From positions 1-54,965 of the IMG/VR virus record IMGVR_UViG_3300044613_005025: a stretch of DNA of 54,965 bases; one strand, written 5' to 3'. Position numbers and translations under genes: made by a program. The notes below the pieces were generated by a model. That model was not told the origin of the DNA and ran no database searches. It worked only from the letters and a program-made list of their open reading frames with translations. Origin of the DNA: a virus. Taxonomy: Duplodnaviria; Caudoviricetes. Every line of letters begins with the position of its first letter. The stretch's first letter is position 1. Shown piece after piece: positions 14,727 through 38,407 of the stretch.

Positions 14727-15248
14727 ATGTCGCTGCGCACTCCCAATCAGGCCGCTGCTGATCCCGTGGAGGACCTGCGCTTCGCACCGGCTGAGCAGGA
14801 CTCCGATGGAGAAGCGGTGTGGGAACCGGTGGCGGTGGACCCGAGCCGGCCGATCAGCCAGACCAACCCGCCACGGCGTTCACCCCATCACGCCCAGACC
14901 CCCAGGGCCACTGCCGGGGAGGTGGAGCGGCGCATTGCAGAAGCGCAGCTCTGGATCGCGCAGCGGCTTCCTTTGGTGGAAATCAGGGCGAAAGCGGGCG
15001 AAAGCTGGGGGGTGAACAACATCAAAACGATCAATCGCTACCTCGACCTCGCCCGCGAGCGGATGGTGGAGGAGCTGATCACCGACCGCCGCCGCCACCA
15101 GGCCGAGCAGATCTTTGCGCTGAACGAGTGCGCCCGCCGGGCGATGGATGCCGAGCAGTTTTCAGCCGCCGTTGGCGCATTCCGGGTGATCGCCGAGATC
15201 GGCGGCCTGCTGCGGGCACCGATCAAGCCCCCGGAACCAAGGCCATGA
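14727..15248 (+). CDS. Probable terminase small subunit
   Basis: HTH-like segment (WGV...TINRYL) plus helical tail; stop overlaps the TerL start (ATGA). Confidence 0.55.
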   Translation: MSLRTPNQAAADPVEDLRFAPAEQDSDGEAVWEPVAVDPSRPISQTNPPRRSPHHAQTPRATAGEVERRIAEAQLWIAQRLPLVEIRAKAGESWGVNNIKTINRYLDLARERMVEELITDRRRHQAEQIFALNECARRAMDAEQFSAAVGAFRVIAEIGGLLRAPIKPPEPRP

Positions 15249-16888
15249 AGGCGAGCACCACCGCCACCGTGATGCCAGCACCCGTGCTCACGCTCCAGGC
15301 CCCTGCAGAAGGCGGCCTGCTGCTGCCGGAGCTCGACCCCTGGGGTGACGGCGGCCTGCTGCACCTGCCCAGCACCAGCCCTGCTGAACACCTGGAGCCC
15401 CAGCTGCTGCGGGCCTTCATTGCCGAGGCCTACCCCCGCTACGGCTTCCACCGCTGGGCCGAGGTGCTGATCGAGCTGCTGCAGGCCGTTGCCGATGGTC
15501 AGCTCAGCCGGCTGATCGTCACCTGCCCCCCGCGGCTGGGGAAATCGCTGCTGGTCTCCAAGCTGTTCCCGGCCTACTTCCTGCAGCGCTACCCGCACCT
15601 GTTCGCGGCGATTGCGTCTTATTCGGCTGAGCTGGCCTACGCCCACTCCCGTGAGGCGCGCCACTTCTACCGGGTGACCGGCCATCTGCTGGCCCGTGAC
15701 TCGGCGGCTGTTGGCAACTGGCTGACCCGCCAGCGGGGCGGCTGCATTGCTGCCGGTGTGGATGGCCCGTTCACGGGCAAGGGCTACAGCCTGGGGATCA
15801 TCGACGACCCTTACAAGGGCCCCGGTGATGCGGCATCACCAGCGCTGCGGCAGAAGCTGATCGACTGGCTGCGCTCGGTCTGGCTCACCCGCGCCGAACC
15901 GTCGAGCGTGCTGGGCCCTGATCGCAGCGAGCAGCCGAACATCTCCGCCCAGGTGGTGGTGCTCACCCGCTGGGACCACCAGGACGTGATCGGCTGGCTG
16001 CTGGAGCAGGAGCTGGGGGAGGCGCCGCAGCACTGGACCGTGCTGGATCTGCCGGCCATCGCCGAGGACCCGGCCGATCGCCCAAAGCTGCCGCCCACCT
16101 GCACCCTGATCCCCGACTGGCGCCAACCGGGTGAGGCGCTGTGTCCAGAGCGCTTCCCGCTGCAGGAACTGCTCAAAATTCGCGTCCGCCTCGGTGCCTA
16201 CTGGTGGGCGGCGCTGTATCAGCAGCGGCCCAGCCCGGCGTCGGGCTCGATCTTCCTGCGGCAGTGGATCCGGCCGCCCTTCCCCCGTGAAGACGGCCTC
16301 CAGCGGCAGTACGCCCTGCTGGCCCTCTCCTGTGACCTGAGCTTCAAGGGGGAGGCGGAGAGTGACTACTGCGGCTTCTGTCTGGCTGGTCTGCTGGCAC
16401 CACCGCCCCGGACGGTCAACCCCCGATCGGGTGAACCTGACGGCTCGCCGCCATCAGCCGCCCTGGAGATCGAGGTGCTCTGGGCGGCCCGCCACCGCTT
16501 TGGCCTGCCGGAGGTGATCCGCTTCCTGCTGGGCTGCCTGGAGGCCCTGGAGCAGCAGGGCCTCAGGCCCAATGCCGTTTTGATCGAGGACGCCGCCAAC
16601 GGCCCGGCCGTGCTGCAGACGCTGCGGCGCCGCGTGCCGGGGATGCTGCCGATCACCGCCCGGGGCAGCAAGGAAACCCGCGCCCATGCCGTCGCCCCAT
16701 TGGTGGAGGCCGGACAGGTCCGCTTCCACCACCGCGCCCAGCCGCTGATAGAGGAAGCGATCCGCTTTCCCAAGGGCAGCAAGGACCTGGTGGATGCCTT
16801 CTGCCACGGCGCCCTGTGGCTGGAAGGCCGCTACTGGAAGGCCCAAGGCATCCAGCCGGTGGTGACGCCGCTGCTGGTGAGCCGGTGA
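15245..16888 (+). CDS. terL: Terminase large subunit
   Basis: PPRLGKS, IIDDPYKG, TRW, ALYQQRP, IEDAANG, DLVDA. Confidence 0.93.
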   Translation: MKASTTATVMPAPVLTLQAPAEGGLLLPELDPWGDGGLLHLPSTSPAEHLEPQLLRAFIAEAYPRYGFHRWAEVLIELLQAVADGQLSRLIVTCPPRLGKSLLVSKLFPAYFLQRYPHLFAAIASYSAELAYAHSREARHFYRVTGHLLARDSAAVGNWLTRQRGGCIAAGVDGPFTGKGYSLGIIDDPYKGPGDAASPALRQKLIDWLRSVWLTRAEPSSVLGPDRSEQPNISAQVVVLTRWDHQDVIGWLLEQELGEAPQHWTVLDLPAIAEDPADRPKLPPTCTLIPDWRQPGEALCPERFPLQELLKIRVRLGAYWWAALYQQRPSPASGSIFLRQWIRPPFPREDGLQRQYALLALSCDLSFKGEAESDYCGFCLAGLLAPPPRTVNPRSGEPDGSPPSAALEIEVLWAARHRFGLPEVIRFLLGCLEALEQQGLRPNAVLIEDAANGPAVLQTLRRRVPGMLPITARGSKETRAHAVAPLVEAGQVRFHHRAQPLIEEAIRFPKGSKDLVDAFCHGALWLEGRYWKAQGIQPVVTPLLVSR

Positions 16889-16904
16889 GGGAGGAGAGGA
16901 AGCG

Positions 16905-17594
16905 ATGACGGGTGCAGACCTGGAAGCCCCAGATCAGACGCCACCGAAGGTTCTCGAGCCTGTGCCTGGGCAGCCGGTGGTATTTCAGCTGTCGCTGCCG
17001 ATCACGGTGGTGCTGGTGGGGTCTCCCACCGGTGCTGCTCGAATGCTGCGCCAACGGCGCTACCGCCGGCCGGCCTGTTGTGCGCGAGCGGGGCAGCTGG
17101 AGATCCAATGGGCAGAGCCTGCTCGGCATGCGCCAAGGGCTTCGGCCTGGCAGGCCCCGCACTGCCGGGCGAGGCGTCAACGGCCCGTGAGACCCCATGC
17201 CGCTGCCGATGCCCTGGCCTTGGAGCACATGGACCTGGCGGAGAAGATCGCTGGCAACTTCGCCCGGCGCACCGTCCACCCCAAGGAGGATCTGCTGCAG
17301 CTGGCGATGATCGGGTTGATCAAGGCGGCGCGGCGGTATGACCCTTCACGGGGTCCGTTTCGGCCCTACGGGCGCACCTATGCGAATGGGGAGATAACGC
17401 ACTTTCTGCGGGACAACGGGTTCCTGCTCAAGGTGCCTCCGACTTGGCGAGAGATCCATGCGCGGGGGCAGCGGTTGCTTACCTCAGGAGTTGATGTGGC
17501 GATGATGCTGGAAACATTGGAGATCAGCCGCGAGCAGTGGATTCAAATTGCTGATGCTTGCTCAGTTCGGGTGGTCGCTTTTCCTGTTGGTTGA
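16905..17594 (+). CDS. Sigma-70 family factor (SigF/SigB-like region 2, region-3-like helix, no region 4)
   Basis: EDLLQLAMIGLIKAARRYDPSRG.F..Y....NGEI.HFLRD; ends soon after; GGAG RBS. Confidence 0.85.
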   Translation: MTGADLEAPDQTPPKVLEPVPGQPVVFQLSLPITVVLVGSPTGAARMLRQRRYRRPACCARAGQLEIQWAEPARHAPRASAWQAPHCRARRQRPVRPHAAADALALEHMDLAEKIAGNFARRTVHPKEDLLQLAMIGLIKAARRYDPSRGPFRPYGRTYANGEITHFLRDNGFLLKVPPTWREIHARGQRLLTSGVDVAMMLETLEISREQWIQIADACSVRVVAFPVG

Positions 17595-17648
17595 ACGCGA
17601 GCCATCAGCCGCGCGAGGTAAGGCGGTGACTGCATGGCCTTGTTCGCC
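17590..17648 (-). other. attC-like recombination site (59 bp)
   Basis: Minus strand GGCGAAC-AAGGC-CATGCAGT...GCTGATG-GCTCGC-GTTCAAC: R''/L''/L'/R' with 5- and 6-nt spacers and an extra base in L''; begins 2 nt after the methyltransferase stop. Confidence 0.75.
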
Positions 17649-17650
17649 TT

Positions 17651-18419
17651 TTACTCCGTCTTTCTAGCGACATACACACCGTAGCTGACGTAAGCCTTGT
17701 ATTTCTCATAGAGGTCAATTTCCCGTTGTTCCGCGAATACAATCTTTCGTGCTTCTTCACTGTTCCCGTTCCGGTTCAGGAAGCCCTCGAACCTGGCCTG
17801 CATGGGTTGGCAATACTCACTTAGCCAACAATCTTCAGGTAACACGAAGTACCCAATGGGCGAATAGCCGTGTTTCTCTAGAACCCTGATCTTGGCCGAA
17901 GCCACATCGATTTCGGTATACTCGCTATTCCAGTGGTTCTGGAGTTCCGCTGGTCGAGAGTCTGGGAGCCATGTGATCTCGGAAGCGACCAAAAGCCCCC
18001 CGCTTTTCAGGAAGCGTCGCCACTCAGCAACGCCCTTTTCAAATCCCATGTTGTAAATGGCACCCTCGGACCAGATGACGTCAAATTCTTCGTTGGTGAA
18101 TGGCAGGTTGTCCATGGAGCATGCAAGCGTCGATATCCGGTCTGCAAGACCCGCTTTTTCGGCCCTTTCATTCAGCTCGTCCAGGAAGTCCTGAATGAAG
18201 TCCACCGCCGTGATGTAAGCATTCAAGAGCCGGACAAGGAGAACGGCGGATGCCCCCGTGCCACACCCGATATCCGCAACCTTTCAGCGGCGCTGCTCGG
18301 TCGACCATGGCCAGATTGAGTGCCTGTTCCGTCTCGACGTCCCCACCCGTTCCCTGCCGAGAACCTTGCTTGTGCAGGTCGATCAAGAGTCTGTAATCAT
18401 CCATAGCGATATCTTGCAT
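17651..18419 (-). pseudogene. Class I SAM-dependent methyltransferase, frameshifted
   Basis: N-terminal part (RQGTGGDVETEQAL...PLK) continues into VADIGCGTG...FDVIWSEGAIY in another frame; one extra base near 18281-18284. Confidence 0.85.
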
Positions 18420-18424
18420 TGTCA

Positions 18425-18510
18425 GGCTGACGCCGCAGATCTGAAGCGGGAAGAGACTTGAAAGAAAGCAAAGCAGCCACGCTCCCGTCTTCTGTATCTA
18501 GATGTCAGGA
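18425..18510 (-). other. attC-like site with GAC/GTC cores (86 bp)
   Basis: Minus strand TCCTGAC-ATCTA-GATACAGA-AGACGGGA...TCCCGCT-TCAGATC-TGCGGC-GTCAGCC; both extrahelical positions present; ends 5 nt before the methyltransferase ATG. Confidence 0.6.
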
Positions 18511-18722
18511 TAATATTGAGACTTGATTGCAATCAATAATTAGAATAAAATGTGACGCCTAAGATCCCCTCAAGACGGAGAGAGCGACAAGAAATATGCG
18601 ATTATAAGCACAAAGAACGTCTCTGTAGGCACAGGAGAATTGCGTGGGCATTGGACAACGCAATCCGAATTCTTATAATCAAGATGCGGCGGTCATAAAG
18701 ACGAGATTGCGGGGGAATGAGT

Positions 18723-19160
18723 TCAGACGCAACTGCTTTCACCTTGGCATTTCTTGCCGTCACAGCAGCATCCCCTAGTGCACTGCTGTGGTTGCGTACA
18801 CTGAGAAGGACATGCAAGCAAGCTCGTATATGGAATAGCTGGAACAATATCTTTGCCAACTTCTAAAACACGAGCAAGAACAACTCTTGTACCATTCTTA
18901 ATCCTCACTGCGACGTGTTCGCCTGGCACTTGAGAATTCTGCTCTTCAATAGCTGAAATGGACACAATACCCGATTCAGGAATTGCAAAAGCTTGTCCAT
19001 TTTGATCCATAAGATGAATTTCAGCATCCCCTCTGCTCACAAGACCTCCTGTAAGAGTTACCCCGCCAGCGAAATCGGACTGAGCAAGTGCCGCCTCTGT
19101 AATGCTAGAAAAATTCTTTAAGTCGAGCGTCCCAATAAAATCCTGGACCGAGCCTGTCAT
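18723..19160 (-). CDS. Hypothetical protein with Cys-rich C-terminus
   Basis: 145-aa AT-rich ORF ending CPSQCTQPQQCTRGCCCDGKKCQGESSCV. Confidence 0.65.
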   Translation of the reverse strand: MTGSVQDFIGTLDLKNFSSITEAALAQSDFAGGVTLTGGLVSRGDAEIHLMDQNGQAFAIPESGIVSISAIEEQNSQVPGEHVAVRIKNGTRVVLARVLEVGKDIVPAIPYTSLLACPSQCTQPQQCTRGCCCDGKKCQGESSCV

Positions 19161-19273
19161 TCGAGCTTGCCTTTATATTAAATCTCAACGTAAAATCAAA
19201 AAGCCCTGGCAAAGTGTCACCGTCACAGATCTTAATAAGAGTAGCGATATGGCTGAATACAGTGCGCTTAATT

Positions 19274-19324
19274 CTCCGACGCACTACAGGCTGTATCTCA
19301 GGCGCCTGCATGCGGTGGTCTGAA
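19274..19324 (-). other. Degenerate attC-like site
   Basis: Minus strand TTCAGAC-CACCG-CATGCAGG...GCCTG-TAGTGC-GTCGGAG; right arm appears about 3 nt short. Confidence 0.35.
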
Positions 19325-19509
19325 ATTGGAACGGTGAGCCCCTCTGCAACTTGTCATGATTTATATCTGAGTGTGGTTGTGCGGAACAAACCTCCTTGCG
19401 GTGGAATGGCTCTCACTCGTATCTGCCCCCTAAACGGATTCTAATAAGTTTTATCACAGATGCTCCGCCACCCGGCCGGAAAGATGATTGATTAACATGC
19501 TAAATACGA

Positions 19510-19863
19510 TTGCCAATGGGTAGTTCAGCCAAGGTACTTGCCTGTAAAGCATTCAAGGAAAAGCTTGCTAAAGGATTAGAAGATTTAGATTCATCTTGCT
19601 CATTCCTGAATGCCATTGATGCCACCACTTGGTCGATATTTATGTCTAACCTGCAATACAATGGGAACCAGCTAGTGCATGCAGATTGCACCCGCCTAGC
19701 CGAGAAACTTGACAGGGATCAGATTGCAGAAGTGCTTGCAAACTTTGGAGTGTCTGATGAACAGTTTGCTTCGTGGTACAATCACGCATGTATTCTGTTT
19801 GAGTGCGAAACCATTCCAGGTGTCTATTGCGATGCTCAAGGGTGCCGTTTGCCTGAATCATGA
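19510..19863 (+). CDS. Hypothetical protein with four C-terminal cysteines
   Basis: 117-aa AT-rich ORF ending HACILFECETIPGVYCDAQGC; start uncertain. Confidence 0.5.
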   Translation: MPMGSSAKVLACKAFKEKLAKGLEDLDSSCSFLNAIDATTWSIFMSNLQYNGNQLVHADCTRLAEKLDRDQIAEVLANFGVSDEQFASWYNHACILFECETIPGVYCDAQGCRLPES

Positions 19864-19884
19864 GTCAATGCATGGTCAATCAGT

Positions 19885-19920
19885 AACTGTGTTGAATTCG
19901 ACAACTGTGTTGAATTCGAC
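19885..19920. repeat. 18-bp tandem duplication
   Basis: AACTGTGTTGAATTCGAC twice, exact. Confidence 0.9.
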
Positions 19921-20152
19921 TCTTGCGGAGCCTTGCGTCTTGTCTTCACTAAACCATATCTTTACAGATCGGCTTCCTGGAATCTCCAAGAAGTAGAAGC
20001 CTACTCCTAAGCATTAAGTCAAGGCTATTCAGTCAGAGCACTCATTTTGCCCCTAGGGAATTTTAGAAGGGTTGCCTTGGCCGAAATTCTCGTTGGCTGC
20101 CGGCGCACCCAATCACGGCCTCTGGCAATGGCTTTGCCCCCACCAGCAGCCA

Positions 20153-21730
20153 ATGCCCACCACCCGCCGCCGCTGGACAACTACCCCCAGCAGCCCCTCC
20201 TCCCCACCAGCGCTGCAGCCCCAAGCACCGGCTGAGCCCCCCTGGCTGGAGCACCCCACCCTCTCCGGCCTGAGGGACCGCCTGCAGCTGGTCTACGACT
20301 GCTGGACCCTGCTGGATCTACCTGACGGCACCAGCCGCCGGCCGGTGCATCTGCCTCGGGGGATAGAAGAGCCCGAAACCTGCTACATCAAGCGGCTGGA
20401 AGCCGCCCGGCCCACAGGCTTCTACCGCGATGCCCTGCGCACCTATGCCGGGATGCTGTCGCGCCTGGCCTGGCAGGAGCTCCCCGACTCCCTGACCCGA
20501 GTGGCCACTGATGTCGATGGCCAGGGCACCGACTTGGGGGTGTTCCTGTTTCTGGCCGACCTGCTCACCCTGCGGGATGGCGGCTGCCTGATCCTGCAGC
20601 TGCCGCCCCAGCACCGCTGGCCCTCAGAAGGGGATCGGCTGGAGGCCCTCGCCAAGGGCGATCGACTCTCCTTCCCCCGCCTGCAGCTGGTGCCCCGGGG
20701 TGACCTGCTGAATTGGCGCCTGCCCACTGATGCCGCCACAGCTGCTCCGGCATCGGGCCCAGTGGAGATCGTCTGGCGAGAGCCTCGCCGCCAGGCCCTG
20801 CCGCCCCGCTTCTCCAGCGGCAATGCAGGCGTGCCCACGGTGGTGATCGACGCCCATGGCGGACTGGTGCCCGATCCACAGGTCTGGCTGTACCGCAGCC
20901 TGTCGGTCACCGATGACGGCCTGGTGCTGCGCAGCTGGCAGGCCAACCCCAACCCCGGTGCCGTCGATGGCTACGACGTGGTGCCGGTGGGTGAGCCTGA
21001 GCGGATGCCCCAGCGCTTTGACCTGCCGGCCCTCTGGTACTCGGTGGATGGCAGCGCCTTTGGCGAGGGCGATCTGCCCCACCTGGGCCTGGCGCACCAG
21101 TACCTCAACCACTACCGCTGTCGCAGCGAATACGAGGACCTCTTGTCGCGCACCGCCCTGCCGGTGGGTGTGCGCACCGGCCTGGTGGATGCCTACGGCT
21201 TCCGCCGCAGCGACGGTGCCCTGGGCACGGGTCCCGCCACCGGTGGAGCAGAGGGCCAGCGCCCCCAGCGGCTGGTGCTCTCCACCTCTTCGTTCATGGA
21301 CCTGCCCGAGGGCGCCACGTTCCAGTGGGTGGAGATCGAGGCCCGCTCGCTGGCGGAGCACCGGGCCTACTTGCAGCAGCTGGAGGAGGCCATGCGCCGC
21401 GATGCCCTGATCCCGGCCGGCGGCCATGGCCCGGCCCGCACCGAGCTCGAGATTTCCCTGACTGCCGGCCAGAGCTTTGCGGTGCTGCAGTCGCTGGCGG
21501 GCCAGAAGCGCTCGATGCTCAGCACCCTGCTGCAGCAATGGACCCGGCTCACCGGCGAGAAGCTCTCCGATGAACCGGCTTGCACGGTGGAGATCTGCCC
21601 GCTGGTCCCTCCGCAGCCAGCCCGCAAACCCGAGCCTTCAGTGCAGGAGTGGCTGCTGCTGCATGAGCGCGGGGTGATCGATGCGGCGGAGCTGCGGCAG
21701 CAGCTGGGGCTGGCGATCCCTGGCGACTGA
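20153..21730 (+). CDS. Portal protein (DUF4055-like)
   Basis: HLPRGIEEPETCY.KRL, DVDGQGTDL, LAHQYLNHY..RSEY, F.WVE motifs; position after the terminase. Confidence 0.8.
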   Translation: MPTTRRRWTTTPSSPSSPPALQPQAPAEPPWLEHPTLSGLRDRLQLVYDCWTLLDLPDGTSRRPVHLPRGIEEPETCYIKRLEAARPTGFYRDALRTYAGMLSRLAWQELPDSLTRVATDVDGQGTDLGVFLFLADLLTLRDGGCLILQLPPQHRWPSEGDRLEALAKGDRLSFPRLQLVPRGDLLNWRLPTDAATAAPASGPVEIVWREPRRQALPPRFSSGNAGVPTVVIDAHGGLVPDPQVWLYRSLSVTDDGLVLRSWQANPNPGAVDGYDVVPVGEPERMPQRFDLPALWYSVDGSAFGEGDLPHLGLAHQYLNHYRCRSEYEDLLSRTALPVGVRTGLVDAYGFRRSDGALGTGPATGGAEGQRPQRLVLSTSSFMDLPEGATFQWVEIEARSLAEHRAYLQQLEEAMRRDALIPAGGHGPARTELEISLTAGQSFAVLQSLAGQKRSMLSTLLQQWTRLTGEKLSDEPACTVEICPLVPPQPARKPEPSVQEWLLLHERGVIDAAELRQQLGLAIPGD

Positions 21731-21746: not shown

Positions 21747-22244
21747 ATGACCCAGTCCTCCCCACCCACCTGCAGCTGGCGCCCCGGTGACAGCGAGACG
21801 CTGCGCATCGCCCTGTCTATCCCCGTCACCAGTGCTGCCCTGGCGGCGCTGAACCGAGAGATGTCCCAGCTGCAGACCCACTACCCCACCGGGGTGTGCA
21901 CGGCCCAGCGGCACCTCGACGCCATCGCCGAGCTGGATCAGCAGCTGGCGGCCCTGACGCCAGCCGATCTGAACACCCCGGTGCGCAGCAGCCGCAAGGG
22001 CGTGGCCGGTGGCGTGGTGCCCAACCCGCTGCCGCTGAGCAAGTTGGCGGTAGTCGAGTACGCCACCGAGCTGCTGCTGGAGGAAACCGAAAGCCAGTGG
22101 GATCCCAATGCCCCGTCACCAGCGGTGGTGCTTGGGAGGCAGCGCAGCCAGCGCATCGGCCAGCTGGCGCTGCTGTTGCCAAGACTGCAGAACTGGCGCC
22201 AGTGCAACCCCGACCCCTTCCGGGGATCACTGGTTCGGGGCTGA
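21747..22244 (+). CDS. Hypothetical virion protein (possible head completion/adaptor)
   Basis: 165-aa mostly helical ORF directly after the portal; function inferred from position only. Confidence 0.55.
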   Translation: MTQSSPPTCSWRPGDSETLRIALSIPVTSAALAALNREMSQLQTHYPTGVCTAQRHLDAIAELDQQLAALTPADLNTPVRSSRKGVAGGVVPNPLPLSKLAVVEYATELLLEETESQWDPNAPSPAVVLGRQRSQRIGQLALLLPRLQNWRQCNPDPFRGSLVRG

Positions 22245-23417: not shown

Positions 23418-23483
23418 GGAGCTGGCAACAGGGAGAGCGAGCGCAGCCCGGACGGGGCGCCCGCAGCACCACAGCCGTGATGG

Positions 23484-24440
23484 GTGATGCCCTCTTCCTT
23501 CTTCTCTGACTTCAGCCGCACCAGCAGCGGCACCAAACCAGACCTTATTGCTCCTGCCGCTCCGTGGCAGGTCTACCGCCAGCACCAGCAGCAGCCCAAC
23601 CAGGGCCCTGCTGGTTCCACTGCTGCACCAGCCGCTGACCTCGCCCCTCTCGACGAGGACGATGACGATGCCAGCAGCCTGGACGGCGGCTCCGGTGACG
23701 ACAGCTTTGACGCTGCGTCGACCCTCGACTCCAGCCCCGGCAGCGGCGACCACGACGATCCCCCCGCTGCCGCCACCAGCACTGCTGATCCCCTGCGCGC
23801 CGAGCGCCGCCGCAGCAACCAGCTCGAAAAAGAACTGCGCAAGGCCCGAGCCCAGCTGTCGCGCTTCTCCGAGATCAACCCGGACGAGTACGCCCGCCTG
23901 CAGGACGCAGAGCGCAAGCGCGAGGAGTTCGAACGCCAGGTGGGCGAGCGCGAGCGTCAGCTCAATGAGGCCAACCTGCGCCGCGTGCGCAGCGTCGAAA
24001 AGGAACGGGACGAGGCCCGCTGTCAGGTGCAGAACCTGCGCAAGGAGCGCTTGATGGAGCGCCTCTTCTCAGAAGCAGAAGGCCGTGTGGGCGGTGATGA
24101 ACGGGGGACGTTCTTTGACACCTTCGTGACGCTGTGCGGCGGCCACTTCCAGCTGGGGGAGGTGGACGGCCGCGAGCGGCTGCTGCCGGTAGACGGCAAG
24201 GGCCAACCCCTCACCGCCGATGGCGTGGCCCTGAGCGATGGCGACTACATGGAGGAGTTGCGCCGCCACCCGGTGTACAGCTTCCTGTTCCAGCAGCGCA
24301 GCGGCCTCTATTCGGCTGCTGTGCCTGAAACGGGCCATGAGCACGGTGGAGCGGTGAATCTGCAGACCCTGAGTACGGCCGAGCTGTATCTGGAGGCGGT
24401 GAAGGGCACCACTCCCAGGGCGGCTGCACCGCGGCGCTGA
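23484..24440 (+). CDS. Probable capsid scaffolding protein
   Basis: Acidic disordered N-terminus, long coiled coil, typical size; inferred. Confidence 0.6.
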   Translation: MMPSSFFSDFSRTSSGTKPDLIAPAAPWQVYRQHQQQPNQGPAGSTAAPAADLAPLDEDDDDASSLDGGSGDDSFDAASTLDSSPGSGDHDDPPAAATSTADPLRAERRRSNQLEKELRKARAQLSRFSEINPDEYARLQDAERKREEFERQVGERERQLNEANLRRVRSVEKERDEARCQVQNLRKERLMERLFSEAEGRVGGDERGTFFDTFVTLCGGHFQLGEVDGRERLLPVDGKGQPLTADGVALSDGDYMEELRRHPVYSFLFQQRSGLYSAAVPETGHEHGGAVNLQTLSTAELYLEAVKGTTPRAAAPRR

Positions 24441-25180: not shown

Positions 25181-25399
25181 TCAGCAGACCGAGACGGTGC
25201 AGCCGGGGGTGCCCTGCAGCTTGCGGGCAAAGGCGAATGCCTTCTCAGCGGGGATCAGCCGCATCTTTTTGACGGGTTTGCCGCGACGGCCCAAGAACTC
25301 GACCTCACAGGGAGTGGTGCCGAGCTTCTGGACGCCGGGCTGATAGCGGTGAACCACAAGCAGGCGGACTTCGCAGACGGGGCCTTGGGGAATGGCCAT
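25181..25399 (-). CDS. Hypothetical 72-aa protein (apparent paralog of 48899-49111)
   Basis: VRLLVVH...VEFLGRRG...IPAEKAFAFA; preceded by a hairpin element. Confidence 0.65.
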   Translation of the reverse strand: MAIPQGPVCEVRLLVVHRYQPGVQKLGTTPCEVEFLGRRGKPVKKMRLIPAEKAFAFARKLQGTPGCTVSVC

Positions 25400-25445
25400 G
25401 GCTGGGATGGAGCGGAGAACACCGACCAGACGCCCCGCAGGTGAG

Positions 25446-25494
25446 CACTGGCCAGGGGCGAGCACCGCGAGCCTTGCGTCAGCCCTGACCAGTG
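25446..25494. repeat. Dispersed hairpin element, copy 1
   Basis: CACTGGCCAGGG...GCGTCAG-CCCTGACCAGTG. Confidence 0.6.
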
Positions 25495-25673
25495 GGAGCC
25501 GCAGGGGCATGCTGCGGAGGGGTTTCGCGCCGCCCGGCCAGCCAGCCCCCAGTGGCAACGGTGCAAGTGCCGTGCTGGACTCCCACCGCGCCCGAGCAGT
25601 GGAGCTGCTCCACCAACCCTGGGATCGAGGGACAGGCAAGGGGGCCGCAGCTGCAGCCCCCAACCCATGGCGC

Positions 25674-25997
25674 TCAGACCATCTGCAGCTTCTGCTCAGA
25701 CAGTGACTGGCGCTGGAGCTCGAGCTCACAGCGCTGCATCAGCTCTTGCTGGGCCAAGAGCCGCTCATCCAGCTCATCAATGCGTGCCAGACACTGCTGG
25801 ATTGCCGGGATCACCTCCTCCTCCAGCAGAGTGATCTCCTCTTCTCCATAGGGCTGCTCGATCCAGGTGCGGCGCAGCGGCAGCCCACGACGACGCAGCA
25901 GGATCTCCTCCACCGAGCGCAGCGTGGATTCGAGCAGCAGGAATGGATCTTCCTCAGACCGGCAGAACGGTGAGGCAGCAGATGAGAGCGTGGCCAT
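25674..25997 (-). CDS. Hypothetical helical protein
   Basis: 107-aa ORF with host-like codon usage. Confidence 0.65.
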   Translation of the reverse strand: MATLSSAASPFCRSEEDPFLLLESTLRSVEEILLRRRGLPLRRTWIEQPYGEEEITLLEEEVIPAIQQCLARIDELDERLLAQQELMQRCELELQRQSLSEQKLQMV

Positions 25998-26111
25998 GGT
26001 GATCGGCGCCAAGAGCGGCGCAGCGACGGGACCGATCCCAGAGGAGGCCCGACGTCAGGCGGGCCTCAGACTGGAGAGGCCCGGAGCAAGCCCTCCTCCC
26101 GCTCCCAGGCG

Positions 26112-26378
26112 TTACCGGTCCATCCGCGACAGTGCTGCTCCACCCAGCAGCGCCAGTAGCAACTTGAGGGTGGAGTCAAAGCCGCCCTGCAACTGCTCCA
26201 GCGTGCCGGGGCAGATCTGGCCGATCGATCGCCCCTCCAACGCCCGCTGGCCGCAGACCCCAGCGGCGAGGGAATAGATCAGCAGCTGGGTGCCGATCAC
26301 CACCGCCAGGATCTTGAAGACGAACCGCTCACGGTCGAACGGTGGCTTTGGCGGTCGGGGTACTGGGTTGGCTTGCAT
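26112..26378 (-). CDS. Two-TM holin-like membrane protein
   Basis: Two hydrophobic segments, GGAGGAG RBS, directly downstream of the YkuD gene. Confidence 0.55.
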   Translation of the reverse strand: MQANPVPRPPKPPFDRERFVFKILAVVIGTQLLIYSLAAGVCGQRALEGRSIGQICPGTLEQLQGGFDSTLKLLLALLGGAALSRMDR

Positions 26379-26430
26379 CGCTGCTCCTCCCTTGATCAGG
26401 CCCCAGCTGCTGGCAGCACCAGCTCCGGCG

Positions 26431-27174
26431 TCACTTTTTTTCCTGGAACACCCCCACGTACACCGTGCCCTGGCGGTACAGCGGCAGCACCTTGTCGCGC
26501 AGGTCAGCGTTGTGCAGGCGGAGGCAACCCAAGGTGGGATGCAGAGGCTGCTGCGGTGCCCAGGCCATCGGCCAGCCGCAGGCCGAGCCGCCGCCGTGGA
26601 GCATGATCCCGGCCCGGCCGACGGCCACCTCCTGGCCCTCCAGTTCCTCCATGTCAAAGGAGTACCAGCCGTAGGCCATGGCTGTGTCGGAGCAGGGCGG
26701 GTTGGGGTTCTGCTCGTAGTCCGCGTAGAGCTGCCCCAGTCGGTAGAGCCCCGGCGGGGTGTCGGTGCTGTTCTGGGTCCAGTCGGTGTCGCTCCCCTGG
26801 CCGCGGGCCAGGCAGGGGATCTTCCAGAGGAGCTGGCCGCTGTGGTCGTAGGCCTCCATGTCCTCATCCCGGTCGTTCACCAGCAGGTAGGAATCCCCGG
26901 GCTGGACGGGTGCTGCCAGCTGCGGGCCGGCCATGCCGGCTTCCTCTGAACCACGGGGATCGAGGCCGCCGCTGGGGACTGCTGGTGCCGGGGGCGCAGC
27001 GGGTTTCTGGCTGAAAGTGAGCGCCCAGGGGGCCTGTTCATCGAGGACGGCCTCGCTGCCGGGCAGTGCAGCGATCGCGGCATGGAGGGTCCAGACGCCG
27101 GAGACCTGCTGGGGTTCACCGCGGAAGGCTTCAAAGCGGTCCAGGAACCGCTCGGGGGTCATGGGGCTGGCCAT
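26431..27174 (-). CDS. L,D-transpeptidase (YkuD) domain protein, candidate endolysin
   Basis: DTPPGLY, IMLHGGG...TLGCLRL catalytic His/Cys motif. Confidence 0.85.
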   Translation of the reverse strand: MASPMTPERFLDRFEAFRGEPQQVSGVWTLHAAIAALPGSEAVLDEQAPWALTFSQKPAAPPAPAVPSGGLDPRGSEEAGMAGPQLAAPVQPGDSYLLVNDRDEDMEAYDHSGQLLWKIPCLARGQGSDTDWTQNSTDTPPGLYRLGQLYADYEQNPNPPCSDTAMAYGWYSFDMEELEGQEVAVGRAGIMLHGGGSACGWPMAWAPQQPLHPTLGCLRLHNADLRDKVLPLYRQGTVYVGVFQEKK

Positions 27175-27270
27175 GGGTGTGGTGCTGCTGAGCCCTGTTG
27201 CCAGTCCCGGCTTGGGGCCGCCGGCTGCGGGCACAAAGAGAGCGCCCCAGCCGCAGCCGGGGCCGCCCCC

Positions 27271-27471: not shown

Positions 27472-27500
27472 GGCAGGCGTAGCGGAGACCCCGAAGCAGG

Positions 27501-27597: not shown

Positions 27598-27726
27598 ACC
27601 ATGAGGAGGGCTGCGCGTAGCCGATCCACCAGGAGCTGGGCCACCACGGTTCTTTCTCCTCGGTGGTTGGGGCGTGGGGACACCTGGCAACAGCTGCTGT
27701 TGTCACTGGGGCCAGGCCCCGGGAGC

Positions 27727-28638
27727 GTGCCCTTGGGCCTGACCTTGATCGAGGCGCAGAAATACGCCCGCCGTGCGGAGCAGCTGGCGGTGCTCAAGAC
27801 CTTTGCGGAGGGGGAGCTGCTGCGCCGCCTGCCCTTCCGCAACCTCGTGGGGGGCTCGTTGAGCTTTCCGGCGGAAACCAAGCTGCCCCGCGTGGGTTTC
27901 CGCGCGGTGAACGAGGGCTATCGCCAGAGCTATGGGGTGATCAATTCCGATTCGGAGTTCGTCCACCTCTTTGGTGGCGACCTGGATGTGGACCGCTCGA
28001 TCGTGGACCTGCAGGGCCCTGAGGCTCGTGCTGCCCAGACCGAGATGAAGGTGCGCTCCATGCGGCTCACCCTGGAGGCCGCCATCATCAACGGGGATGA
28101 CACCTTCGATCCGCGGGCGTTCAACGGGCTGAGTAAGCGCCTGGTGCCGGGTGAGGACCAGACGATCGACAACGGCGGCAATACCCTCAACCTGCTGGCG
28201 CTTGAGGCGTTGACCGACAGCGTGATCGGCTACGGCGGCGACAAGGTGCTGATCGCCAGCAAGGCCGCCCGGCGCCAGATCAGCACCGCCTCCCGCCAGG
28301 CCGGTGGGGATCTGTATGAGGTGATTGACGGACGCCACTATTTCGAGGGGGTGGAGATCCTGCTGGTGGAGGAGGACGCCGAGGGCAACGCCGTGCTCGG
28401 TTACGACGAACCGGGAGACACCACCTCCATCTACTGCTGCGTGCTGGGTGATGCGGCGGTGTGCGGCCTGCAGGGGCCGTTCGAGGGGCGGTATGGGATC
28501 TCAGTGCGGGACTTCGGGGAGGTGCATGACGCGCCGGTGTTTCGCACGCGAGTGGATTGGTACGTGGGTTTTGCCGTCTGCAACCGCAAGGCCGCTGCGC
28601 GGCTTTACAACGTGGCGCCCATGCCGCTGGTGGTCTGA
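27727..28638 (+). CDS. Major capsid protein
   Basis: LTLIEAQK, LPF, LPRVGFRAVNEGY, GGDLDVD, INGD....FNGL, RTRVDWYVG.....AAARL; GGGAG RBS before GTG. Confidence 0.88.
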   Translation: MPLGLTLIEAQKYARRAEQLAVLKTFAEGELLRRLPFRNLVGGSLSFPAETKLPRVGFRAVNEGYRQSYGVINSDSEFVHLFGGDLDVDRSIVDLQGPEARAAQTEMKVRSMRLTLEAAIINGDDTFDPRAFNGLSKRLVPGEDQTIDNGGNTLNLLALEALTDSVIGYGGDKVLIASKAARRQISTASRQAGGDLYEVIDGRHYFEGVEILLVEEDAEGNAVLGYDEPGDTTSIYCCVLGDAAVCGLQGPFEGRYGISVRDFGEVHDAPVFRTRVDWYVGFAVCNRKAAARLYNVAPMPLVV

Positions 28639-28695
28639 GACCGCCCCTGACCAGAAGAACCCCTCACGCCAACACCCCCAACCAGGAGACCCCTG

Positions 28696-29130
28696 ATGAC
28701 CTCTCAAGCCACCCGGCTGCTCGACGCCCAGACGGTGCTCGTCGGCTGGATCAACCACTCCGCCACCGACTGCTACGAGCACATCCGCAGCAGCGGTGAT
28801 GTGGTGAACCTCGGCACCGATCTCGATGCCTGCTCCTCCTTTGTGCTGGTGGCCTCCCACCCCGGCCACAGCGAGGCGGTGACCGTGACCATCGAGCTGG
28901 CGCCCCTACTGGATGACGGCAGCGCCGGCACCTGGATCACCGCCTCTGCCGTGGCCATCCCTGCCGCTGGCGGGAAGGTGGAGGCCACGATCAGCGGCGC
29001 GTCGCTGCTGCTCAACCCTGCCGACAGCGAGCTGATCAGCCCGCCCTGCCTGCGGCTGGCGCGGGCCAGCGTTTCTCCCGCCACCCCGGCGGGGATGTGC
29101 GTGGCCCTGACGGCCACCCAGGGACTGTGA
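28696..29130 (+). CDS. Possible capsid decoration/cement protein
   Basis: 144-aa beta-rich ORF right after the MCP; AGGAG RBS. Confidence 0.55.
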   Translation: MTSQATRLLDAQTVLVGWINHSATDCYEHIRSSGDVVNLGTDLDACSSFVLVASHPGHSEAVTVTIELAPLLDDGSAGTWITASAVAIPAAGGKVEATISGASLLLNPADSELISPPCLRLARASVSPATPAGMCVALTATQGL

Positions 29131-29140
29131 GGTGCCGGCC

Positions 29141-29734
29141 ATGAACAACCCCCTTGAGTCCACTGGCGCCGCCGCCGGTGTTGCCGATGCCGGTGTCGCT
29201 GGTGCCGGTGCCCCCGTGCTGCCGTTGCAGCTGCTCCAGCCCCTCGATGCCTCCCATCCGCTCAGCAGCCCCACCAGCCTTGGCGGTCCTGAGCAGCGGC
29301 TCATCGTCAGCCCCGATCCCAGGGTGGGGGTGGAGCTGGATCTGCGGCCCACCCGCCTGCTGATCAGCAGGGACGGGCAGACCCGCTCGATCTGGCCGGT
29401 GCATCTAGCCGGTTGGCAGGCCCTGGGCTGGCAGCTGCTCACGCCCGCCGAGGCGACAGAGGTGATGCAAGACCCTGCCCCTGCCGCGATCGAGCCTCCC
29501 CCTGCGGCTGAGAGCCTGCCAACACCTGGAGAAGCCCTGCTGGCGGGGGAGGAGCCCAACTTCCAGGCGATGACCAAGGCGGAGATCACCGCGTTCTGCG
29601 CGCAGACCTTTGGCGTCAGCGTCGATGGGGCGATGACCAAGGCCGAACTGGTGGCCACCGCCACCGGCCTGCACCAGGAGGCAGCGGTTGGCGAGCACCC
29701 TGCCGATGGGGAGTTCCCCGATGACCTCCTCTGA
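29141..29734 (+). CDS. Hypothetical protein with C-terminal HeH/Rho-N-like motif
   Basis: MTKAEITAFCAQTFGVSVDGAMTKAELV. Confidence 0.6.
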   Translation: MNNPLESTGAAAGVADAGVAGAGAPVLPLQLLQPLDASHPLSSPTSLGGPEQRLIVSPDPRVGVELDLRPTRLLISRDGQTRSIWPVHLAGWQALGWQLLTPAEATEVMQDPAPAAIEPPPAAESLPTPGEALLAGEEPNFQAMTKAEITAFCAQTFGVSVDGAMTKAELVATATGLHQEAAVGEHPADGEFPDDLL

Positions 29735-29942
29735 TCCCGCTGCCCCCAGTCCCACTGGCAGCGAGCGGCCGGAGGGGGTGATCTTCCTGGGGGAATCGCA
29801 GTGGGTGTTCGGCAACCGCCCCCTGCCTCCCTCCGGCCCGATCACCGTTCTGCTGGCCAGCCCGCCGCTGCGCACCACCACTGCTGGCAATGGGGTGGTG
29901 TCGATCTCCTTCGACATGCGGCTGCTGGCTGCTCTGCCTTGA
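29721..29942 (+). CDS. Small structural protein ending FDMRLLAALP
   Basis: 73 aa, overlaps the upstream gene; C-terminus resembles that of the next gene. Confidence 0.55.
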   Translation: MTSSDPAAPSPTGSERPEGVIFLGESQWVFGNRPLPPSGPITVLLASPPLRTTTAGNGVVSISFDMRLLAALP

Positions 29943-29991
29943 ACCTTGCCGCCACAACCGCTGCTGCAACTCTCTTCACCCCCTGAACCCC

Positions 29992-30714
29992 ATGGCCACC
30001 GCCCCCACCCGCACCCCGATCACCAGCACCACCACCAGCGACAGCCCCGCTCCCGCTGAGGCTCCAGCCAGCCGCACGCTGGCCAGCGACCTGCTGATTG
30101 TTCAGCGGGGCGCCATTCCTTACAAGGCCACCGCCGAGCAGCTCAAGGGCTACATGCTCACCCCGGCCACCGCGGCGGCGATCGGTGCGATCAAGCCCGG
30201 CACCAACCTCTCTGTGGATGCCGACGGCACCCTCCATGCCTCCATTCCCGGCGCCCTGCAGTACCAGGGCGCGATCGATCCCACCAGCGCAGAGGCCCCG
30301 GCCGATGCTGCGGTGGGGGATGTGTACCTGGCCAGCACCTCCGGTGAGGCCCTCGAGAGCTGGAGCGGCATCGCGGGCCAGCAGGTGGCCCAGGGGGACC
30401 TGCTGCTGTTTGACGGCAGCAGCTGGAGTGCCAACGCAGCCCTGGGCCCCGATGGCGCTGGCGTGATTCGCATCCAGGTGAGCGCACCGCTGGCCATCGA
30501 TGAAAGCGATCCGGCCCAGCCCTTGCTCAGCGTTGATCCCGCCACCACGGCTGCTGCCGGTGTGTTGCGCCTGGCCAGCGGCGAGGACCTCAGTGCCGGC
30601 ACCGAGGGCGCGGCCGTGGATGCCGCTGCCCTGAAGGCGGCGATGGAGACGGCCCAGCCTGCGGGGGACTACATGCCGCTGGACATCAGCAGCCTGCCTG
30701 CCCTGCCCGCCTGA
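29992..30714 (+). CDS. Fibre-like structural protein
   Basis: PATAAAIGAIKPGTNLSVDADGTL and ATTAAAGVLRLA fibre repeats; YQG..D and GDLLLFDGSSW motifs. Confidence 0.7.
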   Translation: MATAPTRTPITSTTTSDSPAPAEAPASRTLASDLLIVQRGAIPYKATAEQLKGYMLTPATAAAIGAIKPGTNLSVDADGTLHASIPGALQYQGAIDPTSAEAPADAAVGDVYLASTSGEALESWSGIAGQQVAQGDLLLFDGSSWSANAALGPDGAGVIRIQVSAPLAIDESDPAQPLLSVDPATTAAAGVLRLASGEDLSAGTEGAAVDAAALKAAMETAQPAGDYMPLDISSLPALPA

Positions 30715-30751
30715 GCCCCCGCCTCCTTTCCAACCGCCTGCTGTTGCTGAC

Positions 30752-31795
30752 GTGATCCAGCCCACCGACCTGTTCGCTGTTCAGCGCGATGGCACCACCT
30801 GTCGTGCCGCCGCCGCTGATCTGCTGGCCCTGCTCCAGGCCGGGCCAGCCTCCCGTACGGCAGGCAGGCTGTGGGACCTGGTCAGCACCCCTGCAGATCA
30901 GGACTGGCGATCGGTCTGCTGGGCACCTGAGCTGCGGCGGTTGGTGGCCGTTTCTATCGATGGCAGCCAGCGGGTGATGACCTCAGAGGACGGCCGGCAC
31001 TGGAGCAGCCGCCCCACGCCCAGCGACAACAACACCTGGATTGGTGTCTGCTGGAGTCCGGAGCGGCTGTTGTTTGTGGCGGTGGCCTCCGGCGGCACCA
31101 GCAACCAGGCGGTGATGACTTCCCCGGATGGGATCACCTGGACAGCCCGCAGCGTGCCCGTGGCCAACAGCTGGGTGGCCATCTGCTGGAGCCCCGATCG
31201 GCTGTTGTTTGTGGCGGTGGCCTTTGGTGGCACCGCCAACCAGGTGATGACCTCCCCGGATGGGATCACCTGGACGGCACGCAACGCAGCGGCCAGCCTG
31301 GTGTGGCGTGGGGTGTGCTGGGCGGCTGAGCTGGGTCTGTTCGTGGCGGTGGCCACCACCAGCAATGGCACCAACCAGGCGGTGATGACCTCCCCGGATG
31401 GCATCACCTGGACGCTGCGCACCACCCCGGCGGATAACACCTGGCGCAGTCTCTGCTGGGCCCATGAACTCGGCCTGCTGGTGGCAGTGGGCCAGAGCGG
31501 CACCGGCAACCGGGTGATGACCTCCCCAGATGGCATCACCTGGACGCTGCGCAGCACGCCAGCGGATCTGGACTGGCGGGCGATCTGCTGGGCAGCCGAG
31601 CTCAACCTCCTGGTGGCCGTTGCCGGCACCGGCAGCGGAAACCGGGTGATGACCTCAGCCAACGGCCTGAGCTGGACCTTGCGCGCCAGCGCCGCTGACC
31701 TGCAGTGGAGCGGCCTCTGCTGGGCCCCGGAGCTGGGCCAGCTGGTGGCCGTGGCCCAGAACGGCACCGGCAGCCGTGTGATGGTCAGCGCCTGA
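30752..31795 (+). CDS. Seven-repeat beta-propeller (BNR/Asp-box-like), candidate receptor-binding protein
   Basis: Seven repeats of about 44 aa: W..vCW.pEl.L.VAVA......VMTSPDGITWT. Confidence 0.8.
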   Translation: MIQPTDLFAVQRDGTTCRAAAADLLALLQAGPASRTAGRLWDLVSTPADQDWRSVCWAPELRRLVAVSIDGSQRVMTSEDGRHWSSRPTPSDNNTWIGVCWSPERLLFVAVASGGTSNQAVMTSPDGITWTARSVPVANSWVAICWSPDRLLFVAVAFGGTANQVMTSPDGITWTARNAAASLVWRGVCWAAELGLFVAVATTSNGTNQAVMTSPDGITWTLRTTPADNTWRSLCWAHELGLLVAVGQSGTGNRVMTSPDGITWTLRSTPADLDWRAICWAAELNLLVAVAGTGSGNRVMTSANGLSWTLRASAADLQWSGLCWAPELGQLVAVAQNGTGSRVMVSA

Positions 31796-38406: not shown

Positions 38407-38407
38407 G

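Follow-up and report, generated by a model that had tools for sequence, protein, structure and literature searches.

Introduction

Phage-inducible chromosomal islands of the capsid-forming kind (cf-PICIs) are, according to two preprints that deal with them, elements that encode their own heads and packaging functions but no tails, and whose tail-less capsids are released and joined to phage tails (bioRxiv 10.1101/2022.09.08.507074; 10.1101/2025.02.11.637232). Here, we analyse the IMG/VR provirus record IMGVR_UViG_3300044613_005025, whose whole length of 54,965 bases is referred to below as the window, and show that it holds a member of a conserved, selected, multi-copy and excisable family of capsid-forming elements without tail genes. 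We infer that these elements form particles, that one of their proteins acts as a neck adaptor and that their tails are borrowed. In our judgement there is about an even chance that the family is a large, independently evolved counterpart of the cf-PICIs that borrows its tails, with elements of about 50-60 kb residing in freshwater picocyanobacteria.

The element shares with the cf-PICIs an integrase, a replication function, a small and a large terminase subunit (TerS and TerL), a portal and a capsid protein, with phrog_38, phrog_145 and phrog_212 all being present, and it likewise contains no tail genes, as judged from PHROGs scans of 95 open reading frames (ORFs; 41 + 22 + 32) and Pfam scans of 72 (49 + 23). 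In other respects the two differ. The cf-PICIs have an int-alpA-rep core and a size of 15.4 kb, whereas the element combines an integrase with a primase, shows no AlpA match among its ORFs of at least 60 amino acids (aa), and measures 54.5 kb. The capsid operon of cf-PICIs includes a head-maturation protease; none was found in the element, which has a scaffold gene (phrog_206) in that place. The HNH-terS-terL set of cf-PICIs has no counterpart either, as no HNH match was obtained beside the terminase of the element, and where cf-PICIs carry head-tail connector genes, the element has one candidate adaptor suggested by fold (Z 8.9) and none recognised by sequence. On the other hand, the element carries two sigma factors, Rad52, Gam, a single-stranded DNA-binding protein (SSB), a fibre, a propeller and a large defence cargo, and it resides in a cyanobacterial host. 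A preliminary description of the window, made from the sequence, had proposed a large cf-PICI-like satellite. What stands of this proposal is the conserved, selected capsid-forming family without tail genes; the size, protease, HNH and alpA features of cf-PICIs are not matched. Since the nearest phage relatives of the capsid in the collection searched are cyanosiphoviruses, an origin independent of the cf-PICIs is indicated, and the unmatched features together with the cyanosiphovirus-related head suggest that the element is an independent and much larger analogue of the cf-PICIs rather than one of their members.

The nearest phage capsids are those of the cyanosiphoviruses P-SS2, S-CBS2 and S-CRES, at 37-41% identity (39-41% for PSS2 and S-CBS2). 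As in the element, the scaffold gene of these phages lies just 5' of the capsid gene, and a sigma/RNA polymerase-like gene is present among the structural genes. However, their genomes measure 72-107 kb and have long structural/tail genes upstream of scaffold and capsid, of which the element has none. Prophages are said to be rare in unicellular picocyanobacteria (PMC6157547). Marine Synechococcus RS9917 contains 'relic prophage' islands of about 42 and 65 kb that adjoin tRNA genes (Sullivan et al. 2009, PMC2784084). Compared by their description only, as far as that account goes, these islands share with the element a terminase, an integrase, a sigma factor and P-SS2-like structural genes; they were read there as degraded, whereas the family described here is conserved, selected and multi-copy. 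Many of the phage-like picocyanobacterial islands dismissed as relics, as in that account, may thus be working capsid-forming elements. The I55 family of Pseudomonas, described as tmRNA (transfer-messenger RNA)-linked satellites of a jumbo phage, 20-70 kb in size, with an integrase and defence cargo (PMC12772148), is similar in size, integrase and cargo, and differs, going by that description, in that our family builds its own head. Two further candidates proved, from what their sources describe, to be other kinds of element: the 'relic prophage' island of WH8016 (Flores-Uribe et al., bioRxiv 10.1101/325100), which has a T7-like polymerase, and a sponge-symbiont prophage (PMC12284385), which has P2-like tails. 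Supplementary gene tables aside, we found no published description of this family in the literature.

A packaging and head module without tail genes

The window has a GC content of about 0.65-0.70, with three low-GC islands within it. Such a high GC content fills raw ORF lists with spurious frames, and genes were therefore chosen by combining GC content at third codon positions (GC3) with family matches. The packaging and head module and its flanking sigma gene are composed as follows:

14727-15248, plus strand: TerS candidate, directly 5' of TerL, coding by GC3
14819-16888, plus strand: TerL (phrog_38, E 1.4e-75; Terminase_6C)
16905-17594, plus strand: sigma-70 family factor 1 (Sigma70_r2, E 6.6e-12; phrog_351)
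20072-21730, plus strand: portal (DUF4055, E 1.1e-9; phrog_145, E 9.1e-18)
21747-22244, plus strand: 165-aa helical protein with its true start at 21747, candidate neck (head-to-tail) adaptor by its fold model
22248-23417, plus strand: LysM protein, a 217-aa N-terminal domain followed by LysM repeats (Pfam LysM, E 1.9e-16)
23484-24440, plus strand: scaffold (phrog_206, E 1.5e-11)
25181-27234, minus strand: conserved block of three genes between scaffold and capsid (GC3 frames; syntenic in relatives), namely the next two entries
within 25181-25729 and 25674-26012, minus strand: two small proteins
26431-27234, minus strand: YkuD-like L,D-transpeptidase-fold protein (YkuD, E 8.1e-5, 23.7 bits against a cut-off of 23.4)
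27733-28638, plus strand: major capsid protein of HK97 type, TTG start at 27733 (phrog_212, E 1.5e-53; Pfam GP7)
28696-29130, plus strand: conserved 144-aa protein, by its position decoration/cement protein or head-tail connector
29132-29734, plus strand: variable 200-aa protein with two C-terminal 'MTKAE' repeats (sequence and family alignment)
29992-30714, plus strand: fibre-like protein with an N-terminal DLLxVQRG motif and repeated PAT-AAxG segments (alignment)
30752-31795, plus strand: beta-propeller of about seven 44-aa blades with SxDGxxW-type motifs (132-nt tandem repeats; weak WD40/propeller Pfam matches), likely a receptor-binding module
32412-33194, minus strand: sigma-70 family factor 2 (phrog_351, E 5.4e-10), kept 3' of the propeller gene in most relatives

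The TerL, portal, scaffold, capsid, LysM, fibre and propeller genes had been named in the preliminary description and were recovered at or near the same positions; to these we add the three minus-strand genes between scaffold and capsid, the sigma gene between TerL and portal, and the second sigma gene after the propeller. The TerS gene that it also named holds by position and size 5' of TerL, while family support is confined to phrog_34910 (of unknown function, E 0.0026), the sole match. This candidate is 92% identical in a circular relative described below (G006), where it also adjoins TerL. The coding frame switches at about 15.1 kb according to GC3, and TerL probably starts near 15.2 kb, after the TerS candidate. 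No family match in Pfam or PHROGs was obtained for the fibre-like protein.

The YkuD-like protein retains an HGGG...GC(L)R catalytic-type motif and is the sole wall-enzyme candidate of the element. In one distant relative (L050) a PHROG endolysin is found instead, on the minus strand and downstream.

A late-type box, TGGCAACAG, is present at 23423-23431, 53 nt 5' of the scaffold gene, at 27685-27693, 40 nt 5' of the capsid gene, and on the minus strand at 27195-27203. The last copy lies just 5' of an internal ATG of the listed YkuD-like ORF, which is probably the true start of that gene. Written as TGGCAAYAG, the box has four exact copies in the window against 1.04 expected, a number reached in 2 of 200 shuffles, and it precedes the capsid gene in 28 of 28 relatives. 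This pattern would fit a promoter read by the element's own sigma factor(s).

The absence of a tail from this module, asserted in the preliminary description, was borne out. Firstly, the PHROGs and Pfam scans returned no tail, nozzle, tail-hub or ejection-protein family among the 95 and 72 ORFs, respectively; the sole 'tail' row at E <= 0.001 was a baseplate hub (phrog_46, E 8.4e-6) located on the LysM repeats. Secondly, no gp7-like connector or terminator was recognised in the window. Thirdly, all ORFs of at least 600 aa are assigned to other functions (dynamin-like GTPase, primase, TerL, DUF499, methyltransferase and PLD-helicase), so that none is left to encode a tape measure, as had been stated; no structural protein lacking an assignment exceeds 389 aa, and the longest of them is confidently modelled in its LysM part alone. 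Compared with a complete temperate Caudoviricetes prophage, the window appears to lack the tail module at the level of hidden Markov models (HMMs), the comparison extending to the level of the fold for one protein.

Boundaries of the element and a circular relative

The element is delimited by the following features:

1-1290, plus strand: tyrosine integrase at the left end (phrog_1 integrase, E 2.8e-16; weak Pfam Phage_integrase match)
54462-54510, plus strand: attR core, equal to the 3'-terminal 49 nt of tRNA-Gly(TCC)

The 49-nt stretch is found again in five picocyanobacterial genomes with 95-100% identity, and each of the four host-genome loci retrieved has it within an intact tRNA-Gly(TCC) gene. 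In a sister element (G003:C47), an intact tRNA-Gly(TCC) gene is located about 125 nt outside the integrase gene. Based on these tRNA-Gly(TCC) loci we place attR, whose presence had been predicted, at 54462-54510 and attL just left of the record, with the element filling the window up to the final 450 bases, which are host DNA; attL and an intact tRNA-Gly gene should thus be found just left of position 1. Since attL is outside the record, no clean pair emerged from a direct-repeat search for att sites within the window. The window is therefore one integrated element of 54.5 kb, running from integrase to attR. The Cyanobium genome that holds the sister element has, at G003:C47 165013-265827, two att copies about 100 kb apart, and the distance between its terminase and capsid genes is 56 kb, against 11 kb in the window; that element is composite or has a very large insertion.

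Sequence left of position 1 is outside the record, and a complete circular relative was used as a stand-in for it. This IMG/VR relative (G006) has 49,900 bp and belongs to the direct terminal repeat class, and its 99-bp repeat was confirmed. Its gene order runs from TerL to the second sigma gene, followed by a 16-kb minus-strand block, a conserved unknown, Rad52, the integrase, KilA-N, Ant, helicase, primase and TerS, wrapping round to TerL. The 16-kb block consists of McrBC and type I restriction-modification genes and is the only extra content of this relative. Here the right arm runs on into the integrase, the arrangement of an excised or packaged form, and no tail genes are present in the whole unit, cargo region included, which answers the worry that tail genes might lie left of position 1. 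The att core of the window has no match in the circular relative. CheckV rated it 65% complete, a value that fits a genome about a third short of those of its phage relatives, and which on its face could also speak for a prophage that has lost part of its genome.

Distribution and conservation of the family

A search of one-genome-per-species contigs with the capsid protein yielded 55 loci in about 42 assemblies (counted by accession prefixes), most of them 95-98% identical to the window and nearly all labelled Vulcanococcus, Cyanobium, Synechococcus or Prochlorococcaceae. The same search in IMG/VR gave eight loci, and the eight close relatives there comprise one with terminal repeats, four linear fragments and three proviruses. 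Cultured strains are among the carriers, namely Vulcanococcus limneticus LL, Synechococcus sp. WH 5701, Cyanobium sp. FGCU6 and Synechococcus sp. HJ21-Hayes. Seven loci (L019, L023, L024, L031, L033, L040 and L043) are on contigs in metagenome-assembled genomes (MAGs) labelled Bradyrhizobium, Luteolibacter, Brocadiia or Pseudanabaena, one such MAG holding six loci; these labels of other phyla are most likely due to binning error.

In 19 of the 23 loci inspected, the order is capsid, 144-aa protein, variable protein, fibre and propeller, and in most of these 19 the series is also preceded by portal, 165-aa protein, LysM, scaffold and minus-strand block and followed by the sigma gene. The remaining four are two distant relatives with different genes after the 144-aa protein and two loci with a lone capsid gene (L036 and L041); the latter, 96% identical in that gene and lacking the neighbouring module genes, are probably remnants. 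Wherever a relative retains the module, the 144-aa gene comes after the capsid gene. The outer proteins are less conserved: the variable protein is 42-61% identical among relatives, and the propeller only about 52% identical to that of most relatives. The replication-to-terminase region occupies two to four positions per genome in all five genomes searched, and the integrases differ, with 63-95% identity. On one contig of a Vulcanococcus MAG, two copies (L010 and L011) lie 56,093 bp apart, with the mapped gene matches at the same positions and identities, reflecting either a tandem pair of elements or an assembly effect.

To more distant relatives a profile search of IMG/VR gave access: 499 were obtained, the best 80 were kept and loci of at least 17 kb were examined. 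Among 14 loci with 60-74% capsid identity, 11 keep portal, 165-aa protein, LysM, scaffold, capsid and 144-aa protein, next to which come other mid-sized ORFs and then the same small minus-strand gene or sigma gene. Thirteen long ORFs from seven of the 14 loci were scanned, and the only tail-related result was one weak 'tail protein' match (E 3.6e-5, 54 residues) in an ORF at the fibre position; at one locus, the large upstream ORFs encode a helicase and a protease-like protein. In the group with 41-45% capsid identity, on the other hand, eight of eight loci have ORFs of 736-1582 aa upstream of the capsid gene, in the layout of P-SS2 and S-CBS2, and one of four scanned ORFs matched baseplate and virion-structural PHROGs. 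With the tail-less arrangement retained at about 62% capsid identity and tails seen only at 41-45%, the layout is old and stable, with tails confined to the next, much more distant group. The preliminary description had allowed for tail or nozzle genes among the ORFs, for tail genes left of position 1 and for close relatives with a tail operon. None of these was encountered, in the Pfam and PHROGs scans, in the circular stand-in or in relatives down to about 62% capsid identity (13 long ORFs scanned), respectively; the comparison of homologous elements that it had suggested revealed the same tail-less order, and hence the window is not a single deleted prophage.

The family is also represented in environmental data. 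Of the words sampled from the head region, 18 lake or freshwater DNA runs contained a fraction of 0.38-0.90 and six RNA runs one of 0.05-0.14. For three of these six RNA runs, the contigs extend over the genes for terminase, portal, scaffold, capsid and 144-aa protein (28, 24 and 27 of 30 bins); no contig from these three libraries covers the cargo at 18.6-19.9 kb.

Selection on the module genes

Pairwise dN/dS values (ratios of nonsynonymous to synonymous substitution rates) against the window, calculated according to Nei-Gojobori, were as follows:

capsid, 26 loci: 0.029 (dN 0.012, dS 0.40)
portal, 8 loci: 0.125
LysM protein, 17 loci: 0.156
scaffold, 27 loci: 0.166
YkuD-like protein, 34 loci: 0.187
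165-aa protein, 14 loci: 0.20
144-aa protein, 37 loci: 0.22
fibre, 17 loci: 0.29
small minus-strand gene, 32 loci: 0.36
propeller, 26 loci: 0.45
variable protein, 32 loci: 0.46

Every module gene is thus under purifying selection, and the fastest evolution is seen in the outermost candidates for host contact.

Proteins of uncertain fold

The 165-aa protein, encoded directly downstream of the portal, belongs to a family of 97 representative clusters that has no Pfam match. An AlphaFold2 (AF2) model built from a 38-row alignment had a mean pLDDT (predicted local distance difference test) of 75, and its top match in an exhaustive structural aligner was 8keg_A, with Z 8.9 and a root mean square deviation of 3.9 over 108 residues; the next match had Z 6.4. 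The 8keg entry holds the gp5-neck fibre complex of the Anabaena myophage A-1(L), and we take its chain A as gp5, because it is helical. According to the description of that structure, gp5 sits on the portal, anchors the neck fibres and hooks the connector that docks the tail (PDB 8KEG; PMC10966104). This model-based match is no more than suggestive of a neck adaptor. It should be noted that the gp5 gene of A-1(L) comes after the capsid gene, whereas the 165-aa gene comes before the scaffold gene, and that the two proteins share no sequence similarity. The best BFVD match of the model was an unnamed protein (E 1.9e-3), a second structural look at the PDB gave nothing at Z >= 5, the Protein Atlas held no usable match, and a predicted complex of three 165-aa proteins with three fibre N-termini scored 0.01, a value that speaks neither for nor against their association.

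In the AF2 model of the LysM protein (16-row alignment) only the LysM repeats are folded, residues about 220-375 being confident and residues 1-217 having a pLDDT below 50; homologues of its N-terminal domain, 88 proteins, are found only in this element family. For the 144-aa protein, a language model gave a weak lead to Bbp16, of the BPP-1 cement protein family (score 0.93, for 21% of the members of one cluster). No Pfam or PDB match was found for this protein, and hhalign comparison of its family with gp7 and gp6 of A-1(L) gave nothing; by position it could equally be a connector or a cement/decoration protein. No meaningful match in PDB sequences came from profile searches with the families of the 165-aa and 144-aa proteins or with the propeller, and four family HMMs were without a significant match to ORFs from P-SS2, S-CBS2 and Paenibacillus phage Unity.

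The variable protein, the fibre and the propeller have in common a short N-terminal motif (LLIxRDG, DLLxVQRG and DLLAITR; within 29132-31795 of the window also read as LLIsRDG, DLLIVQRG and DLFAVQRDG), followed by unrelated C-terminal domains: MTKAE helices, fibre repeats and the propeller, respectively. The common motif suggests three appendages that may dock at the same kind of site.

Explanations for a tail-less head module

The explanation that we favour, at about even chances as stated above, is that of a large counterpart of the cf-PICIs that borrows tails: because the tail-less layout is kept in dozens of genomes, the element probably spreads by means of the tails of other phages. In such a life cycle the integrase would excise the element from tRNA-Gly, and its own primase, helicase, SSB, Rad52 and Gam would replicate it. 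One or both sigma factors would switch on the late genes via the conserved box, scaffold and capsid protein would assemble into heads, which TerS and TerL would fill with element DNA by way of the portal, and the 165-aa protein would form a neck ring. The injection tail would come from a co-infecting or co-resident tailed cyanophage, in the cell or after release of the tail-less head, as is the case for cf-PICIs. In favour of this explanation we count the wholeness of an element devoid of tail genes, its conserved gene order, the circular unit genome, the purifying selection and the repeated copies per genome, together with the five carrier genomes in which neither PF10145 nor PF05709 was met, the neck-adaptor lead and, as a hint of activity, the RNA-library contigs.

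Several observations weigh against this explanation. With respect to the adaptor, Foldseek of the 165-aa model against the PDB gave nothing at E <= 0.001, hhalign of its family against A-1(L) gp5 gave nothing, and the Z of 8.9 is under the trustworthy range for helical models, in which values below about 13 may be chance; nor did the sequence scans of the window reveal any head-tail connector family. No helper phage for the element was identified, the element is known here from its genes alone, and it exceeds the 15.4-kb cf-PICI prototype three- to fourfold in size. Its full replication and recombination set means that it has no apparent need of a helper beyond the tail, and the fibres and propeller look like a host-recognition apparatus of its own, which a pure tail-borrower would need less. 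A short tail could be made up jointly by six conserved proteins without an assigned fold, namely the adaptor-like, LysM, 144-aa and variable proteins and those of fibre and propeller. Furthermore, the circular assembly could stem from tandem integrated copies, such as the pair 56,093 bp apart; the lone capsid genes show that some copies decay; and the RNA-library data are assembled contigs, which may include carried-over DNA and from which the level of transcription cannot be read.

The main rival is an autonomous virus, in no need of a helper, whose minimal entry apparatus, made from the six proteins, escapes recognition: either a short tail of the podovirus kind, or a portal vertex that lacks a tail and bears neck fibres together with a pilot protein that binds peptidoglycan. 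We consider this a possible but somewhat unlikely explanation. The element encodes all else that a temperate phage requires, from integrase, replication and recombination genes to sigma factors, packaging, a head and a possible wall enzyme, and the six proteins of the structural region are conserved and without an assigned fold. Three of them are encoded consecutively and combine the anchor-like N-terminal motif with fast-evolving fibre and propeller domains, as in receptor-binding proteins, and a genome of about 50-55 kb fits the head type of phage relatives of 50-107 kb. Moreover, no siphoviral tail genes were seen in five carrier genomes (tape-measure family PF10145 in 0/5 and Sipho_tail PF05709 in 0/5, searches that may miss divergent cyanophage tails), and the sheath family PF04984 was above the cut-off in 1/5. 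However, neither nozzle, tail-hub nor ejection-protein families were detected in the window scans, the 389-aa protein with its LysM part is the largest candidate available, and the nearest phage relatives of the capsid among the matches listed are long-tailed siphoviruses. In addition, to our knowledge, every characterised phage of bacteria with an HK97 capsid, a portal and a terminase is tailed.

A more radical version is an HK97-type lineage without any tail, in which an adaptor ring at the portal vertex and neck fibres (the fibre and propeller proteins) would adsorb to the host, and a packaged LysM protein and the YkuD-like enzyme would open the thick cyanobacterial wall for the DNA to enter. 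We regard this as improbable. If true, the portal-terminase realm of viruses would have in bacteria a member that is autonomous and lacks a tail.

Less probable still is a domesticated host particle system, similar to a gene transfer agent, or a capsid that serves a purpose other than spread of the element. The very high conservation of the capsid protein across genera, the benefit of defence cargo to the host and the fibre-like appendages would agree with it. Yet the element has its own integrase, att site, primase/helicase and TerS candidate, which sets it apart from gene transfer agents. Its two to four copies per genome differ and lie in different places, their integrases are 63-95% identical, the att core of the window is unmatched in the circular relative, and a circular form is known. 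The differing copies, own integrase and circular form therefore do not fit a vertically inherited, single-locus host system.

The least probable explanation, a decaying cyanosiphovirus prophage that has lost its tail module, could draw on the cyanosiphovirus-like capsid, the relic or degraded prophages described for RS9917 (as far as that account goes, PMC2784084), the lone capsid gene at 2/23 loci and the CheckV value of the circular relative, but is hard to reconcile with a tail-less order in two clades (19/23 and 11/14 loci), strong purifying selection on all module genes at a dS of about 0.4, at least two copies in each of the five genomes searched, a circular unit genome without a tail module, and the occurrence of the family in RNA libraries as well as in 18 DNA runs from lakes or fresh water.

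If particles are made, the family would be a major, hitherto overlooked means by which genes are transferred in freshwater Cyanobium, Vulcanococcus and Synechococcus, one that moves swappable defence systems of 10-15 kb. If tails are indeed borrowed, tail piracy would extend to a new phylum and to genomes three to four times larger, in elements that are self-sufficient but for the tail. The cultured carrier strains make these predictions testable.

Replication arm, cargo slots and right arm

The remainder of the window consists of the following features; the early arm and the right arm were assigned with Pfam and PHROGs:

1347-4444, minus strand: low-GC cargo with two dynamin-like GTPase genes (Dynamin_N, E 2.2e-19; GC 0.44-0.47)
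4840-14235, mixed strands: early, replication and recombination arm, syntenic in the circular relative, composed of the next seven entries
4840-6018, minus strand: Bro-N/Ant
5906-6595, minus strand: Gp2.5-like SSB
6725-7450 and 7572-8273, minus strand: two conserved unknowns
8493-8870, minus strand: endonuclease
8892-10313, minus strand: helicase
10544-13255, plus strand: primase
13543-14235, plus strand: PD-(D/E)XK-like protein
17600-20000, no strand assigned: low-GC cargo slot between the sigma factor 1 and portal genes (GC 0.48-0.55)
17651-18226, minus strand: methyltransferase in that slot (Methyltransf_11)
33079-34182, plus strand: KilA-N domain protein (KilA-N, E 6.7e-21), its true start probably later than in the listed ORF
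34636-44208, plus strand: defence cargo of DUF499 ATPase, DUF3780, DUF1156 methyltransferase and PLD-helicase
45113-54381, mixed strands: right arm, composed of the remaining entries
45113-46402, minus strand: TPR protein
47066-47734, plus strand: nuclease
47787-48833 and 49764-50945, plus strand: two conserved unknowns
51613-52686, minus strand: Rad52
52566-53186, minus strand: Gam/Gp157-like protein
53238-53759, minus strand: SLOG protein
53848-54381, minus strand: unknown protein

At least three cargo slots can be distinguished: 3' of the integrase gene, between sigma factor 1 and portal, and 3' of the KilA-N gene. In the first, positions 1291-4615 have no match in the five host genomes searched, and matches resume at 4616. 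The second is reflected in a distance from sigma to portal gene that differs among relatives. The four defence genes of the third match PADLOC models, in order, with E 1.3e-179, 7.5e-36, 1.3e-249 and 4.3e-233, and the circular relative has its McrBC and type I restriction system in this slot instead. One element of the clade with about 62% capsid identity carries the DUF499 system of the window at 69-94% protein identity, which indicates that cargo moves between clades. Besides in the window, such cargo was noted at L076 1082-15636 and L095 13791-20571.

In the right arm, positions 47846-54199 are 86% identical to a sister element at G003:C41. A 106-nt stretch of the early arm (6811-6916) is 75% identical to one in the right arm (51696-51801), the two being 3' parts of the unknown gene at 6725-7450 and of the Rad52 gene, and it is also found elsewhere in host genomes; judging from this similarity, the proteins of these two genes seem to share a C-terminal tail.

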